NCBI GenBank assembly: GCA_002435865.1
Contig: DIWV01000002.1
Location: 127,370 to 191,369, forward strand
DNA length: 64,000 bases
From: Cloacimonetes bacterium UBA6097
GTDB taxonomy: Bacteria; Cloacimonadota; Cloacimonadia; Cloacimonadales; Cloacimonadaceae
Direction of reading: 5' to 3'
The notes beneath the pieces were generated by a model that saw nothing but the letters and a program-made list of their open reading frames with translations, ran no database searches and was not told where the DNA came from. Each line of letters begins with the position of its first letter. Within the stretch, counting starts at the first letter, position 1. Both the position numbers and the translations under genes were made by a program. Shown in pieces: positions 26,358 through 30,675 of this stretch.

Positions 26358-26433
26358 TGGAGCTCACAATCGGACTTGAACCGATGACCTCCTCCTTACC
26401 AAGGAGGTGCTCTACCGGCTGAGCTATGTGAGC
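26358..26433 (-). tRNA. tRNA-Thr (anticodon GGU)
   Basis: The reverse complement is GCTCACATAGCTCAGCCGGTAGAGCACCTCCTTGGTAAGGAGG...GGTTCAAGTCCGATTGTGAGCTCCA. The cloverleaf was drawn by hand, with anticodon loop TTGGTAA. Confidence 0.9.
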
Positions 26434-26457
26434 TGCTGTTTTCATGTAATATAAAAA

Positions 26458-26533
26458 TGGAGCGGGAAACGGGGCTCGAACCCGCTACCCTCAGCTTGGA
26501 AGGCTAATGCTCTACCAAATGAGCTATTCCCGC
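26458..26533 (-). tRNA. tRNA-Gly (anticodon UCC)
   Basis: The reverse complement is GCGGGAATAGCTCATTTGGTAGAGCATTAGCCTTCCAAGCTGA...GGTTCGAGCCCCGTTTCCCGCTCCA, with anticodon loop CTTCCAA. Confidence 0.9.
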
Positions 26534-26548
26534 ATGAAATAAAATTTA

Positions 26549-26634
26549 TGGTGGAGAGGGGGGGATTCGAACCTCCGAAGTCGTCTGACGACAGATTTAC
26601 AGTCTGTTCCCTTTGGCCGCTCGGGAACCTCTCC
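26549..26634 (-). tRNA. tRNA-Tyr (anticodon GUA), long variable arm
   Basis: The reverse complement is GGAGAGGTTCCCGAGCGGCCAAAGGGAACAGACTGTAAATCTGT CGTCAGACGACTTC GGAGGTTCGAATCCCCCCTCTCCACCA. It is an 86-nt class II tRNA. Confidence 0.9.
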
Positions 26635-26640
26635 ACACTA

Positions 26641-26715
26641 TGGAGCCGATGAAGGGAGTCGAACCCCCAACCTATTGATTACAAATCAATTGCTCTACCA
26701 TTGAGCTACATCGGC
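26641..26715 (-). tRNA. tRNA-Thr (anticodon UGU)
   Basis: The reverse complement is GCCGATGTAGCTCAATGGTAGAGCAATTGATTTGTAATCAAT...GGTTCGACTCCCTTCATCGGCTCCA. It is the first gene of the Thr-Tyr-Gly-Thr-tuf cluster, the same order as E. coli thrU-tyrU-glyT-thrT-tufB. Confidence 0.9.
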
Positions 26716-27110
26716 AACACGTTTTGTCACAATCCTTAGCACCTCGGTCTATTGTCAACCGAAAACTACACTCTATTATCGTTTAAATATCATTTTTCCA
26801 GTGTAAATGCCAAAAAAAACTACTCAAGATATATGTCAAATGTTTTTCTTTAATTGTGATTATTTGTTGAAAATCAGCGGTCTTTCCCTACCTTGTGTCA
26901 TATTAGAAAAGGAAGAACACTCATTATTCCACAGAGATACTCCATGTATCCTGTTATTTTATGTTTTCTGAATTATGCTCTGTTCGTTTCTTTCCACATT
27001 ACAAGATATATACAGAGATTAACTAAACAGAGGCCTTCCCAACAAATTTCGATTGCATTGATAAAATCATGATGAAAATTCCAAAAATATATATTAAAAC
27101 CATATACCAG

Positions 27111-28364
27111 TTATATTGCTTTAACATTTTCTATTGTTGTATCGAGATCTTCTATATGTCCTTGCAAAGTAAATCTTGTTCTGATACTCTCAAGAAATTC
27201 AACTGCTTTATTTTTGGGATAAGCATTAAATAATTCACTTCGGACTCTTTCGTTATCTCTTATCATAGTTAATAATAACCGTAACTTGTCAGTATTTAAG
27301 GAGCTTATGAAATCTGCAAGGATATTATGACTTTCGGATCTCCCCCAATAATTTCCAAAGAATGTCGATAAAATCTCTTGATAAACTTCTTCAAAAACAA
27401 CAGATGGAACTGAAGGTCCCAATTGGGACAATACCCTAGCTGCACTATTTTCCGAAGCCCAGCCATAAGATGCATCCTTTGCATTGGCAAGTTTACTAGC
27501 TGCTTTTCTATATATATTGGCTCTTGAGCCATCAGGAATATATTTAATCGCATTTAGAGAAACAAGCATTTCTAACAACCTAGTTTTTGCGCCCTTATCA
27601 ATACTATTATCTGCTGTTTCATCAACCGCAAAAGAATGGTATTTTAAACCAGCTGTTTTTCTTAGGTCTTCAATTGACAATTCCCATACAACAGGAAAAA
27701 GAACTTTTGAATTACTTAAACTTGGCTCAGTACCATTGCATAATAATTCTAATAAAAATCCAAATAGTTTTCTTAAATCAGGGCTTTTTAAACTCTTTAT
27801 TTGGTCAATATGGATCAAGATTTGTTCTTGAGCTAATGCAACATTTTTAATAGGATCAAATAAAGAAAATACTGAATGTCCAGGTTCTGGTATGCTCGCT
27901 TCAAATAAGTTCTTTTGAAGTAAAAGTGCTATAGCTATAGAATCTTCAACATCTACTTTAACATCTGATTCATGTGCAGCTGAAACATGATTTCTCATCC
28001 AGTTTATCATTTCCAATGCTTTACTAGCTTTAGGGTTTAATAATCCAAGATTTTTTGCTCCTTGAATAAGCATTAAATCATCTACATTTTCCCATCTTTC
28101 TGCGATTGTACTACCATCTTTATCATATTTTTTTCTTCCATTTTCTGTTTTAACAACAAACTCCCATAATTCTACACCAAAAGCTTCTACGCGTCTTTTC
28201 AAATTATGCATTGCGGCATTCCACAAAGCTAAAATTGAATAACTATAAAATCCAGATTCGAATAACCGAGTAGCTTCATTTACGTAGCCGAATTCAATTG
28301 CATCAAAGTTTGTCATTTGCTTACATGCCGATGAGACTAGTATTTCAGGAAGATATATACTCAT
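27111..28364 (-). CDS. Hypothetical protein with N-terminal HEPN/Abi-like helical domain (RN-x5-H motif)
   Basis: 417-aa AT-rich ORF, all-helical in appearance. Residues 121-131 read NWMRNHVSAAH, i.e. R124-N-x5-H131, which fits the HEPN Rx4-6H consensus with the Abi-type RN. The remaining 270 aa are unrecognised. Confidence 0.7.
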   Translation of the reverse strand: MSIYLPEILVSSACKQMTNFDAIEFGYVNEATRLFESGFYSYSILALWNAAMHNLKRRVEAFGVELWEFVVKTENGRKKYDKDGSTIAERWENVDDLMLIQGAKNLGLLNPKASKALEMINWMRNHVSAAHESDVKVDVEDSIAIALLLQKNLFEASIPEPGHSVFSLFDPIKNVALAQEQILIHIDQIKSLKSPDLRKLFGFLLELLCNGTEPSLSNSKVLFPVVWELSIEDLRKTAGLKYHSFAVDETADNSIDKGAKTRLLEMLVSLNAIKYIPDGSRANIYRKAASKLANAKDASYGWASENSAARVLSQLGPSVPSVVFEEVYQEILSTFFGNYWGRSESHNILADFISSLNTDKLRLLLTMIRDNERVRSELFNAYPKNKAVEFLESIRTRFTLQGHIEDLDTTIENVKAI

Positions 28365-28440
28365 TTTTTCTCCAATGAATCACTTTGTTTGAGGAAATAA
28401 TTTTGTTCTAAGTCAATTGTAAACATCATATAGAAAATTC

Positions 28441-29460
28441 TCAAAATCCTTTAGGCACTAAATCCAATTTGTTAATAGATATATTGATATATTCAAGGTT
28501 TTCCCAAACTCGTAAGACTTCAATGTAATCCCAATACTTAAGCTTGTCTTTTAATCCCTGAACACCACTTGCGTGCTTTCTAATCTTTTCTATTTGTTTT
28601 GCATCTGATACTGCAACAATTCCTTGAACCGCATTATTATTTAAGGATTTGAGTAAATTCATGCAAAGACTATCTATGCTACCTTTGGTTTGAACTTCAA
28701 AAACATAGATAACCCTTCCCATGTTTCCAATTGTCTGTTCCCAAATGGTGTCAACTTTTGAACCATCAGCAACCCTCTTTTCAATATCTGCTGTAAACCC
28801 AAGCCAATTGCCAATGTCTTTGATTTTATCTCTTACTTCATTGTGGAGTTTTTTATCAGATATATTTTTAATATTAATTTCTTTACCTGATACTTCAAAT
28901 TCATTTTTTCTACTTGGTTCTTTAATTTTCTTTCTTTCTTTTACTTTTTTGGTTTTTTCTCTAACAATCTTAGCTTTTTCGATGAGTTTTGGGTCAAATT
29001 CATATACTTTCTTAGCTATATTCTGTTCAAACAGAACTCTTTCCAGATACTTACCATCTGCATCACTTAATTTATTTAGGCTTCCCCTAACCATCATCGT
29101 CCATTTCTGGCTTGTTTTTGGCAGATTTTTTGTAAAGGAAAGATTCTTCCAGATAATATCTTCTTTTATTGGTAGACTGTTTTTAAAATTAAGCCAAACA
29201 AGTTCTTTGACTTTAAACCTTATGCAAAAAGGATCTTCTTTGGTCATAAATATTGGAGTTGAATCTTCAAAATAGTTCGATTTAACTTCTAAAATCCCAA
29301 ACCATCTTGAGAGTCTTGTAACATAACATATTAATTTATCACCAGGCTTCATCTTCGCAGCAATGTTCTCTTGTCTTTTTCTAAAGCCAGAAATAAATTT
29401 ATCTGAATCCTTGAATGCCTGATATGTTTCAGGAGAGAATAAATCAATATAATAAGCCAT
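28441..29460 (-). CDS. EVE/PUA-like domain fused to restriction-endonuclease-like (PD-(D/E)xK-type) domain; putative modification-dependent nuclease
   Basis: 339 aa. Residues 1-145 read YYIDLF...KPGDKLICYVTRLSRWFGILEVKSNYFEDSTP...FCIRFKVKELVWL...GSLNKLSDADG, which resembles the EVE fold pattern. Residues 160-200 form a Lys-rich linker. Residues 205-300 read HNEVRDKIKDIGNWLGF...VDTIW...VIYVFEVQTKG...GIVAV, giving candidate catalytic residues D237 and E255/Q257-x-K259. Confidence 0.7.
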   Translation of the reverse strand: MAYYIDLFSPETYQAFKDSDKFISGFRKRQENIAAKMKPGDKLICYVTRLSRWFGILEVKSNYFEDSTPIFMTKEDPFCIRFKVKELVWLNFKNSLPIKEDIIWKNLSFTKNLPKTSQKWTMMVRGSLNKLSDADGKYLERVLFEQNIAKKVYEFDPKLIEKAKIVREKTKKVKERKKIKEPSRKNEFEVSGKEINIKNISDKKLHNEVRDKIKDIGNWLGFTADIEKRVADGSKVDTIWEQTIGNMGRVIYVFEVQTKGSIDSLCMNLLKSLNNNAVQGIVAVSDAKQIEKIRKHASGVQGLKDKLKYWDYIEVLRVWENLEYINISINKLDLVPKGF

Positions 29461-29815
29461 CTTTGATTCCTTATTGTTTTTTTTAAAAGGAAATAGAAAG
29501 TCATATTTGTCAAGAAATATTCATCAAGATTATACTTTAAGCTCAAGCATATGTTCTACTTCCATATTTCTTTCAATCGGATTTCTAGTACTTAGCTATC
29601 TTTGCACATCAGTCAAATCATAATAGAATTACGGAGTAAGTCCGTAATGGTAGCGTATTGCTCTTAATTAAAAATGGTACAACCCCTGGCATAGATTTTT
29701 AAAGTAATGTACTGCTTCAATTAATTTGCGGATAAAGCATATGTTTTCAATTCCTGCTATATCCAATAACCATGCTTATTCCCATGTTTCTTTCTTCTTT
29801 ATATCTTAATTACAA

Positions 29816-29870
29816 CCCGGGTAGTTCCCGGGTAGTTCCCGGGTGATTCGCGGGTGAAACCCGGGAAGTA
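29816..29870. repeat. Tandem 11-nt repeat x5
   Basis: CCCGGGTAGTT CCCGGGTAGTT CCCGGGTGATT CGCGGGTGAAA CCCGGGAAGTA, read directly from the sequence. Confidence 0.85.
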
Positions 29871-30000
29871 CCTGATATAATCCCGGTATAATCTTGGGAT
29901 GAATTAAAGAGTGAAAAGATACGACAAATGGACTGCGTTCATTTGAATTAAAAATTTAGATTAAGAATTAAAAGAGATATTTAATCACAGAAAACAGCGT

Positions 30001-30202
30001 GGATCCCTGTCCCGTTCTTCAACGGGAGGGACCCTCGAACCGCAGGAATGACGGGAAAGGAAATGGATCCCCGCCTTCGCGAGGATGACGTAAGGGATGG
30101 CAAGCTCCTGTTTGCCATTTGCCAAGCTGGAGCTTGGCAACCCTAAAAAACTGGATGATGCTTTCGCATGAGAGAAGTTTCTGCCTTCGCTGGTATGACA
30201 TC
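30001..30202. repeat. Cluster of family-B short repeats (GGATCC...GC..GGAATGAC/GAGGATGACG type)
   Basis: The units are GGATCCCTGTCCCGTTCTTCAACGGGAGGGACCCTCGAACCGCAGGAATGACGG, GGATCCCCGCCTTCGCGAGGATGACG, the CCAAGCTGGAGCTTGG hairpin and TTTCTGCCTTCGCTGGTATGACATC. They generate the spurious ORF 30019-30204. Confidence 0.7.
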
Positions 30203-30285
30203 AAAGAATCCCGTAGGGATGCTATATGGTAGCCCAGGATTTTGAATCCTGGGTATGGATGAATAATATTTTTTTTTTGTAACTC

Positions 30286-30331
30286 CCCCCATCTCAGTCA
30301 TGCGACAAAGGTCGCATGACTGAGATGGGGG
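30286..30331. repeat. Perfect 21-bp-stem hairpin flanked by T-runs on both strands
   Basis: CCCCCATCTCAGTCATGCGAC AAAG GTCGCATGACTGAGATGGGGG. It is preceded by T10 and followed by AAGTGCTTTTTTTG. Confidence 0.85.
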
Positions 30332-30469
30332 AAGTGCTTTTTTTGTATTTTGTGTTCATATCTTTCCCAGGGTTCGAAACCCTGGGCTAATAAATGTCAC
30401 CCTTACGGGTTGTTTGGCACATAGCTGCTTTGCACCCTTGCGACTTTGCGTTTAAAAATAACTTAGTTA

Positions 30470-30675
30470 TGCCATTTGCAAAAAGGCGCTACTCTCTTTT
30501 CCCTCTGAGTCTCTGTGGTGAAAGGAAATATGGAACTGGATCCCCGCCTTCACGAGGATGACGAATAGGGAATAACTTTGCGGCTTTGCATCTTTGTGCC
30601 TTTGCGTTTTGGATTTATGCCTTTTGGAAAAAGGTGCTACTCTCTTTCTCCTCTGAGTCTCTGTGGTGAAAAAAC
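30470..30675. repeat. Two about 56-nt direct repeats (family C, ...CTCTGAGTCTCTGTGGTGAAA)
   Basis: 30470-30525 reads TGCCATTTGCAAAAAGGCGCTACTCTCTTTTCCCTCTGAGTCTCTGTGGTGAAAGG. 30618-30675 reads TGCCTTTTGGAAAAAGGTGCTACTCTCTTTCTCCTCTGAGTCTCTGTGGTGAAAAAAC. A third partial copy lies at 35765-35790. Confidence 0.8.

Follow-up and report, generated by a model that had tools for sequence, protein, structure and literature searches.

In a 64,000-nucleotide stretch of the genome of Cloacimonetes bacterium UBA6097 (contig DIWV01000002.1), referred to here as the window, one minus-strand open reading frame (ORF) encodes a 339-residue protein in which an N-terminal EVE domain is joined through a Lys-rich linker to a C-terminal domain predicted to adopt the PD-(D/E)xK restriction-endonuclease fold (Table 1). 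The ORF starts with an ATG at position 29460, a few bases 3′ of a Shine–Dalgarno-like AAGGA, and closes with a stop codon at 28441–28443, whereas the corresponding plus-strand frame is full of stops. Six contigs, from JGI, ENA and Logan assemblies made independently of one another, encode an identical 339-residue protein, followed each time by the same 417-residue gene; the ORF is therefore real and does not result from chimeric assembly. The peptides quoted in the initial annotation of this DNA all occur in the translation, namely KPGDKLICYVTRLSRWFGILEVKSNYFEDSTP (residues 38–69), FCIRFKVKELVWL (78–90) and GSLNKLSDADG (126–136) in the N-terminal part, KAKIVREKTKKVKERKKIKEPSRK (162–185) in the linker, and HNEVRDKIKDIGNWLGF (206–222), GSKVDTIW (233–240), GRVIYVFEVQTKGSIDSL (248–265) and QGIVAV (279–284) in the C-terminal part, and the numbering of residues D237, E255, Q257 and K259 agrees with it.

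Residues 1–150 are confirmed as an EVE/PUA-like domain, a fold that had been proposed for residues 1–145. Pfam EVE (PF01878) matches residues 17–101 with a score of 26.8 bits, above its gathering cut-off of 23 (E=5.8e-6), and the NCBIfam model PRK00809 aligns with residues 1–139 (E=2.9e-12). The score of the latter match, 46.5 bits against a model cut-off of 139 bits, places the protein outside the PRK00809 subfamily. A sequence search of the Protein Data Bank (PDB) retrieves from sequence alone the archaeal UPF0310 proteins PH1033 and MJECL36 (1wmm/2p5d; E~4e-4). The full-length AlphaFold2 (AF2) model, calculated from an alignment of 58 sequences, has a mean predicted local distance difference test score (pLDDT) of 87.5, with values mostly between 85 and 96 in the EVE domain. 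Results of a Foldseek search of the PDB with this model place PH1033 first (2hd9; E=6e-10, target-normalised template modelling score of 0.75), followed by MJECL36 (1e-8), the EVE-HNH enzyme VcaM4I (1.6e-5) and a long series of YTH readers of N6-methyladenosine (m6A), which match the EVE domain at ~2e-5. The N-terminal domain thus models as the EVE/PUA-like barrel of PH1033, MJECL36, VcaM4I and YTH proteins. The linker that follows contains a helix predicted with moderate confidence (residues 157–178) and a disordered stretch (residues 181–192, pLDDT <50), in agreement with the Lys-rich linker described at the outset.

As the full-length fold search was dominated by EVE/YTH matches, the C-terminal domain (residues 202–339, hereafter C-domain) was modelled by itself, with a pLDDT of 93.7 and a predicted template modelling score (pTM) of 0.87. 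In full-length numbering, the model consists of helix 202–219, strands 223–231, 234–244 and 248–256, helix 262–272, strand 278–285, helix 287–297, strand 307–311 and helix 312–330, which form the α-β-β-β-α-β restriction-endonuclease core with one additional β-α unit. Nearly all of its best 20 Foldseek matches in the PDB are PD-(D/E)xK nucleases. The best E-value belongs to the R2 retrotransposon restriction-like endonuclease (RLE; 1.5e-3), and several entries of BamHI are matched with a probability of 1.00 (root-mean-square deviation of 2.9 Å over 102 columns, ~20% identity, E~9e-3); BsaWI, EcoT38I, OkrAI, NucS, Cdn1, Bax1 and Cap4 are further neighbours. Against BFVD, five matches are found at E≤1e-3; those that carry a name come further down, with E-values between 1e-3 and 1.2e-2, and comprise restriction endonuclease, MmcB-like, RecB-family and Mrr-like proteins, the last of these only low in the ranking (E~1e-2). 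Profile scans of the C-domain against Pfam, NCBIfam, PADLOC and PHROG return nothing, and searches of PDB sequences with the single protein and with the family profile match the EVE part and give no match for the C-domain. The model and its structural matches bear out the restriction-endonuclease fold that the initial annotation had assigned to this part of the protein.

Conservation of the predicted active site was assessed in an alignment of 78 diverse full-length C-domains, extending down to ~35% identity. D237 is kept in 77 of the 78 sequences and E255 in 75, while position 257 is occupied by Q in 57 and by H in 21, that is, by one or the other in all 78 and never by K. The combination of D237, E255 and Q/H257 is present in 74/78 homologues, and the protein studied here has all three. 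In the AF2 model D237 lies on strand β2 (234–244) and E255/Q257 on strand β3 (248–256), so that D237 and E255 would face each other across the β2/β3 hairpin. Position 259 is far more variable (K in 33/78, S in 21, R in 8 and H in 6), with a basic residue at either 258 or 259 in 65/78. Other strongly conserved positions of the C-domain are H206, E/D208, G217, E227, W240, N246, G260, D263, S264, N268 and Q279, and D237 and E255 are still invariant once the EVE+NmeDI_C proteins described below join the alignment.

Of the catalytic set put forward initially, D237, E255 and Q257 therefore stand as conserved residues, and K259 does not. Because K259 is not conserved and position 257 is Q or H, the site is a D...E-x-Q/H variant and not a D...Q-x-K site of the Mrr/MspJI type. 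The Mrr-like reading of the nuclease has accordingly been abandoned: the lysine of Q257-x-K259 is confined to the 33 members counted above, no Mrr_cat profile matches even at E≤10, and the nearest solved fold is that of BamHI. As modelled, the C-domain holds as a PD-(D/E)xK fold whose closest solved relative is BamHI and not Mrr. In MspJI, the catalytic motif reportedly reads D...QxK with an essential lysine, and BglII is said to carry a glutamine, Q95, at the third position of its E93-x-Q95 motif. The active site of BamHI comprises E77, D94, E111 and E113, of which E113 is a non-lysine third residue, and the rarity of this BamHI-type site is stressed in the work on OkrAI (PMC3025578). By analogy with the BamHI precedent, the non-lysine third residue found here would represent a variant of the PD-(D/E)xK motif and not a failure to match it.

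Comparison with 1,898 homologues, which fall into two classes, shows that the two halves of the protein have different affiliations. Class (a) proteins (~372 residues) share its EVE domain and the start of its linker, with 57–60% identity over residues 1–175, but end in a different C-domain, Pfam PF27126 ‘NmeDI_C', which matches the PADLOC Type II restriction endonuclease model (REase_II) at 1e-14. Class (b) proteins (~360 residues) share its C-domain at 72–79% identity and carry an unrelated N-terminal domain with weak similarity to Pfam ‘OGG' and to helix-hairpin-helix (HhH) domains (10 of 42 members match, best E 4e-6). Among the first 120 matches the query alone combines both halves, and its nearest full-length relatives are EVE+NmeDI_C proteins, with 40% identity over 97% of the length. 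PF27126, which class (a) relatives carry, is absent from the precomputed Pfam list of the query (PF01878 only), and the REase_II model likewise matches class (a) proteins and not the query. Similarity to class (a) extends to about residue 175, that to class (b) sets in at 193–205, and the head/tail junction lies within the disordered linker. The protein is thus a domain-swap chimera, its EVE half derived from the EVE+NmeDI_C family and its nuclease half from the class (b) family: behind a common EVE reader, one nuclease has been exchanged for another.

The fusion is old and not recent, since DNA identity to class (b) genes, which starts near residue 205, amounts to just 68–75% and since the two halves have equal guanine-cytosine (GC) contents, both overall (31–33%) and at third codon positions (GC3, 27–28%). 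These values rule out recent recombination as the source of the chimera, and the agreement of independent assemblies rules out an assembly artefact. An exhaustive HMMER search with the C-domain over 1.84 billion representative proteins yields only 254 clusters, and its fusion to an EVE domain is very rare, being found in the query and in four clusters among the best 150 of these 254. A second group of EVE+C-domain proteins (P0230, P0233, P0253 and P0269; ~295 residues) has a short linker and another EVE subtype (Pfam E=1e-10), in which BLAST detects no similarity to the EVE domain of the query. As this group pairs a different EVE subtype with the same C-domain, EVE and this nuclease have been joined at least twice. 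The C-domain also ends proteins containing a Type I R-subunit domain 3, an OLD-like ATPase-TOPRIM, ParE or N6_Mtase/Eco57I (P0157, P0153, P0150, P0223 and P0191), although adjacent genes joined by read-through or gene calling may account for some of these cases.

The two nuclease tails may themselves be related. The segment ...IDVLW...AFEVEHTTSIYSG... of NmeDI_C is in register with ...VDTIW...VFEVQTKGSIDSL... of the query, and G217, D237, W240, F254, E255 and L269 are invariant across the query-type and NmeDI_C families. An hhalign comparison of the C-domain family with NmeDI_C gives P=0.025, or 0.0036 with 110 extra NmeDI_C sequences, which is too weak for homology to be claimed despite the consistent register; a distant homology is possible. 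The NmeDI_C nuclease domain (P0395–P0514) is itself found at 63–85% identity behind varied N-terminal heads, one of them Mrr_N (PF14338), a head-swapping that parallels the modularity of the C-domain of the query.

Class (b) genes are spread over more than 15 bacterial and archaeal phyla with a C-domain identity of 55–76%. Their context was examined in 80 GTDB genome loci (L012–L091), considering neighbours within 4 kb (a class (b) gene is exemplified by L004:6001-7083). HsdS is found in 18, HsdM in 12 and HsdR in 9 of the 80 loci, and in each of the nine HsdR is encoded on the same strand, upstream of the class (b) gene by a median of 129 nt. Recurring neighbours also include Type III-like methylases, NERD, McrB-like AAA_5, AAA_21/OLD and KAP NTPase proteins, and one class (a) gene adjoins a ResIII+Eco57I enzyme. 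The loci of the relatives thus show a defence-island pattern with no obligate partner. The ~360-residue family is annotated as hypothetical everywhere and is absent from PADLOC. Searches by tblastn give no match in phage genomes and only four in a plasmid collection, all of them C-domain proteins annotated as hypothetical.

The nuclease half draws attention to a large family, unannotated and horizontally mobile, that resides in Type I restriction-modification (R-M) loci and is missing from defence-system catalogues. Tentatively, it could be an uncharacterised, very widely transferred defence module of ~140 residues that has repeatedly been joined to interchangeable base-sensing heads, of which the weakly OGG/HhH-like one is the commonest and two unrelated EVE subtypes are others. 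If the OGG/HhH-like head were a sensor of modified bases, or attacked modified phage DNA as a glycosylase, the ~360-residue family would constitute a new and abundant Type IV-like class; and if that head senses modified bases, the query would amount to a natural head-swap experiment, indicating that the module functions behind any reader of modified bases. This parent family, possibly a Type IV-like class that has so far escaped recognition and whose sensor is HhH/OGG-like, is the more interesting lead.

The EVE-nuclease gene and the co-directional 417-residue gene downstream are the only two genes of a low-GC island (Table 1), which is flanked by a tRNA/tuf/secE-nusG-rpl cluster and by a repeat-rich non-coding gap. 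The tRNA genes lie at 26358–26715, with the island on the 5′ side of tRNA-Thr; given this position and the lack of convincing flanking direct repeats, a tRNA-integrated island with att repeats has been rejected. Over 10 kb to either side, no called gene carries a DNA-methyltransferase Pfam domain, and a class (a) locus (L006) likewise has none.

The two genes of the island are separated by a gap of 76 nt, and the 417-residue gene has a promoter-like site of its own at 28444–28416. The PHROG family that it matches, 27609, is annotated as of unknown function, and the protein has no match in Pfam, NCBIfam, PADLOC or the PDB. Its family, with 52–61% identity, extends across Bacteroidota, Chlorobium, Burkholderia, Pseudomonas and the candidate phyla radiation (CPR), in variable mobile or defence-like settings with neighbours such as an N6_N4 methylase, a UvrD/AAA_11-DUF559 helicase, H-NS and Bro-N. 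A role as functional partner has been discarded, as homologues in other genomes never adjoin an EVE or C-domain protein; it may be a mobile or defence gene in its own right.

The non-coding gap of 1.3 kb on the 5′ side of the EVE gene holds repeats within 30059–30671. Segments 30059–30090 and 30532–30563 are 94% identical, and two further pairs, 30419–30453/30575–30609 and 30467–30523/30615–30671 (91%), recur at a spacing of ~150 nt. These repeats look like repetitive extragenic palindromic (REP) or miniature inverted-repeat transposable element (MITE)-like elements. On the minus strand, 30207–30253 matches the Rfam Acido-Lenti-1 RNA motif (RF01687) with 44.4 bits, above the gathering score of 37, an inverted copy with 77% complementarity lies at 30366–30409, and between the two there is a hairpin with a perfect 20-bp stem (30282–30335). 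Closer to the gene, at 29820–29872, two tandem copies of GGTAGTTCCCGGGT are accompanied by an inverted copy 14–25 nt away; this array, ~360–410 nt upstream of the EVE start codon, could be an operator-like site.

Table 1. Features of the EVE-nuclease locus, in window coordinates.
Feature	Coordinates	Strand	Basis
Complete ORF, EVE + linker + predicted PD-(D/E)xK	28441..29460	minus	339 aa plus stop
EVE / PUA-like domain, putative modified-base reader, residues 1–150	29011..29460	minus	Pfam, NCBIfam, PDB sequence, AF2, Foldseek
Lys-rich inter-domain linker and domain-swap junction, residues 151–201	28858..29010	minus	AF2, translation, similarity breakpoints
Predicted PD-(D/E)xK domain, closest to BamHI, unannotated family, residues 202–339	28444..28857	minus	AF2, Foldseek
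Predicted active-site hairpin D237...E255-V-Q257 (DTIWEQTIGNMGRVIYVFEVQ)	28690..28752	minus	Translation, conservation, AF2 strands
417-aa gene, co-directional, downstream, not a conserved partner	27111..28364	minus	PHROG 27609 full-length, E=3.8e-93
Low-GC island with two genes only	27000..29999		31–34% GC vs 39.8% for the window

Taken as a whole, the protein is probably a solitary, nucleoside triphosphate (NTP)-independent, modification-dependent (Type IV) restriction endonuclease. This reading is favoured because an EVE reader and a PD-(D/E)xK nuclease are contained in one chain, with VcaM4I as a structural neighbour, and a single-chain Type IV enzyme would be consistent with all of the findings, from which we infer a DNA and not an RNA substrate, catalytic activity, dependence on modification and a possible gating role of the linker. 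Also in its favour are the DNA restriction enzymes BamHI, OkrAI, BsaWI and EcoT38I among the top solved neighbours of the C-domain, the joint conservation of D237, E255 and Q/H257, the repeated union of this nuclease with EVE domains, the restriction-enzyme tails that class (a) proteins carry behind the shared reader, the R-M or defence surroundings of relatives of the nuclease half, the low-GC island and the earlier prediction that EVE-PD(D/E)XK fusions are Type IV enzymes. On this reading the EVE domain would recognise a modified base in the DNA of an invader, probably by flipping it into a pocket in the manner of VcaM4I. The Lys-rich linker, being flexible, would keep the BamHI-like PD-(D/E)xK domain attached and might also gate it; this domain would cut the DNA close to the modified site using a metal site formed by D237, E255 and Q257, to which E208 and/or E227 may contribute. 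Host DNA lacking the modification would be spared, so that no partner methyltransferase would be needed, and the lack of a methyltransferase within 10 kb fits the pattern reported for modification-dependent restriction endonucleases (MDREs) of the PUA-nuclease type (PMC6765204).

Several observations weigh against this interpretation. The canonical lysine is replaced by Q/H, and activity therefore cannot be assumed; some PUA/DUF3427-PD-(D/E)XK fusions had little activity in vitro (Lutz et al.). The C-domain has no Foldseek match in the PDB at E≤1e-3 and no significant sequence-profile tie to any characterised nuclease. In particular, hhalign gives no meaningful alignment of its family with the BamHI sequence, which was verified against the PDB, so that kinship with BamHI holds at the level of the fold only, and the proposed equivalence with E77/D94/E111/E113 follows from strand register and not from superposition. 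PADLOC has no model for the EVE-nuclease protein, and no biochemical or genetic test of the query, of its parent families or of a simple EVE-PD(D/E)xK enzyme was found in the literature. Finally, the nearest EVE relatives (PH1033, MJECL36 and YTH proteins) are RNA-associated or uncharacterised, and for this reason the ligand might be RNA or a free nucleotide.

Four other explanations have been considered, all of which fit the genomic context less well than a Type IV enzyme does. The kinship of the EVE domain with archaeal UPF0310 proteins and YTH m6A-RNA readers would suit an RNA-directed nuclease, in which the EVE/YTH-like domain reads a modified RNA base, such as m6A or one of the tRNA modifications, while RNA is cut by the PD-(D/E)xK domain, in toxin-like defence or RNA turnover. 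For a long time EVE domains were seen as RNA binders (PMC6765204), and some McrBC-related EVE systems are predicted to act on RNA (PMC11090510). We nevertheless consider such a nuclease unlikely: the closest solved structures of the catalytic domain are double-stranded DNA restriction enzymes, the fusion partners and neighbours of the module are DNA R-M components, and the EVE domain of VcaM4I, an enzyme of the same architecture, reads DNA.

The missing lysine, the lack of a significant sequence tie to an active nuclease and the near-inactivity in vitro of some PD-(D/E)xK fusions could alternatively indicate a catalytically dead restriction fold retained for DNA binding or oligomerisation, the protein then being a reader, a regulator or an accessory to another effector. 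This too appears improbable, however, as the conservation of D237 (77/78) and E255 (75/78), together with that of H206, E/D208, E227, N268 and Q279, points to selection on an active site. In addition, non-lysine variants such as BamHI are active, and there is no conserved partner effector, the 417-residue neighbour being unlinked in other genomes.

It is very unlikely that the protein is a ligand-gated abortive-infection nuclease, whose EVE domain would respond to a free modified nucleotide or degradation product, and not to a base within polymeric DNA, and would thereby unleash non-specific cleavage that kills the infected cell or arrests it. A precedent is given by the PUA-domain defence system triggered by N6-methyl-deoxyadenosine monophosphate (m6-dAMP), as reported in a preprint (bioRxiv 10.64898/2026.01.15.699771). 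Moreover, the linker helix of VcaM4I is auto-inhibitory, removal of its EVE domain and linker producing a toxic non-specific nuclease, and the query too has a predicted linker helix (157–178). The match to an NTP-independent MDRE is nonetheless simpler, and the sequence shows no sign of a nucleotide-binding adaptation.

A DNA-repair or sequence-specific (Type II-like) nuclease, whose EVE domain would recognise a lesion or add DNA affinity and whose protective methyltransferase, if any, would be encoded elsewhere, has hardly better prospects: the nuclease module is usually fused to the weakly OGG/HhH-like domain, NucS and MmcB-like repair nucleases are among its structural neighbours and NmeDI, after which the nuclease domain of the EVE relatives in class (a) is named, belongs to Type II (PMC2095814), but the patchy distribution suggestive of horizontal gene transfer (55–76% identity over >15 phyla), the low-GC island, the relatives within R-M/defence loci and the absence of a methyltransferase within 10 kb argue for defence and not for housekeeping repair.

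Among characterised systems, well-known reader-nuclease MDREs combine an SRA with a PD-(D/E)xK domain (MspJI and PvuRts1I) or an EVE with an HNH domain (TspA15I and VcaM4I). The query shares with VcaM4I and TspA15I (PDB 6yex; PMC7897488, PMC6765204) the succession of N-terminal EVE domain, helical linker and C-terminal nuclease in one chain of ~300–340 residues, and both lack an NTPase and a partner methylase. In VcaM4I, 5-methylcytosine (5mC) or 5-hydroxymethylcytosine (5hmC) is flipped by the EVE domain into a hydrophobic or aromatic pocket with residues P24, W82 and Y130 (PMC7897488, PMC6765204). Despite this common layout, EVE identity is only ~13%, and the nuclease of VcaM4I is of the HNH (β-β-α-Me) type, whereas that of the query is of the predicted PD-(D/E)xK type.

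By analogy, the best mechanistic counterparts within the same nuclease superfamily are MspJI, AspBHI and LpnPI, which also place an N-terminal PUA-superfamily reader before a C-terminal PD-(D/E)xK domain and whose cleavage requires the modified base bound by the reader (cited in PMC6765204). However, their reader is SRA-like and not EVE, they have no detectable sequence similarity to the query, and K259 is not conserved here. With BamHI, OkrAI and BglII the query shares an active-site strand having a non-lysine third residue (E111-x-E113 in BamHI, E255-x-Q/H257 here), but BamHI is sequence-specific, has a partner methylase and no reader, and comprises 213 residues compared with ~138 for the nuclease domain of the query. 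R.NmeDI, a characterised enzyme, cuts on both sides of RCCGGY (PMC2095814); relative to the nuclease domain of the query, NmeDI_C has an insertion of ~28 residues between helix 1 and the strand bearing the aspartate.

The swap seen in the query, in which the EVE head of the EVE+NmeDI_C family is followed by another nuclease tail, cleanly illustrates how modification-dependent enzymes are built from interchangeable parts, and since this principle is already established the protein adds to it incrementally. If active, it would be among the smallest reader-nuclease Type IV enzymes and would offer a first biochemical handle on the predicted EVE-PD(D/E)XK class. It might also become a new tool to map a DNA modification, a use to which MspJI and AbaSI are already put. 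Fusions of EVE with PD-(D/E)XK domains have been catalogued as predicted Type IV enzymes by Bell et al. 2020 (BMC Biol; PMC7641849, section 9, Fig. 7), and it is under this class, with which it shares core architecture and predicted role, that the query is to be filed. The class is a computational catalogue, and the query differs in having a nuclease that lacks a Pfam model and carries a D...E-x-Q/H site. Because such candidates were already described there, the protein represents a rare new example and not a new principle. What it contributes is modest: an unannotated nuclease family with a non-lysine site, a very rare fusion and a clear natural exchange of head and tail.

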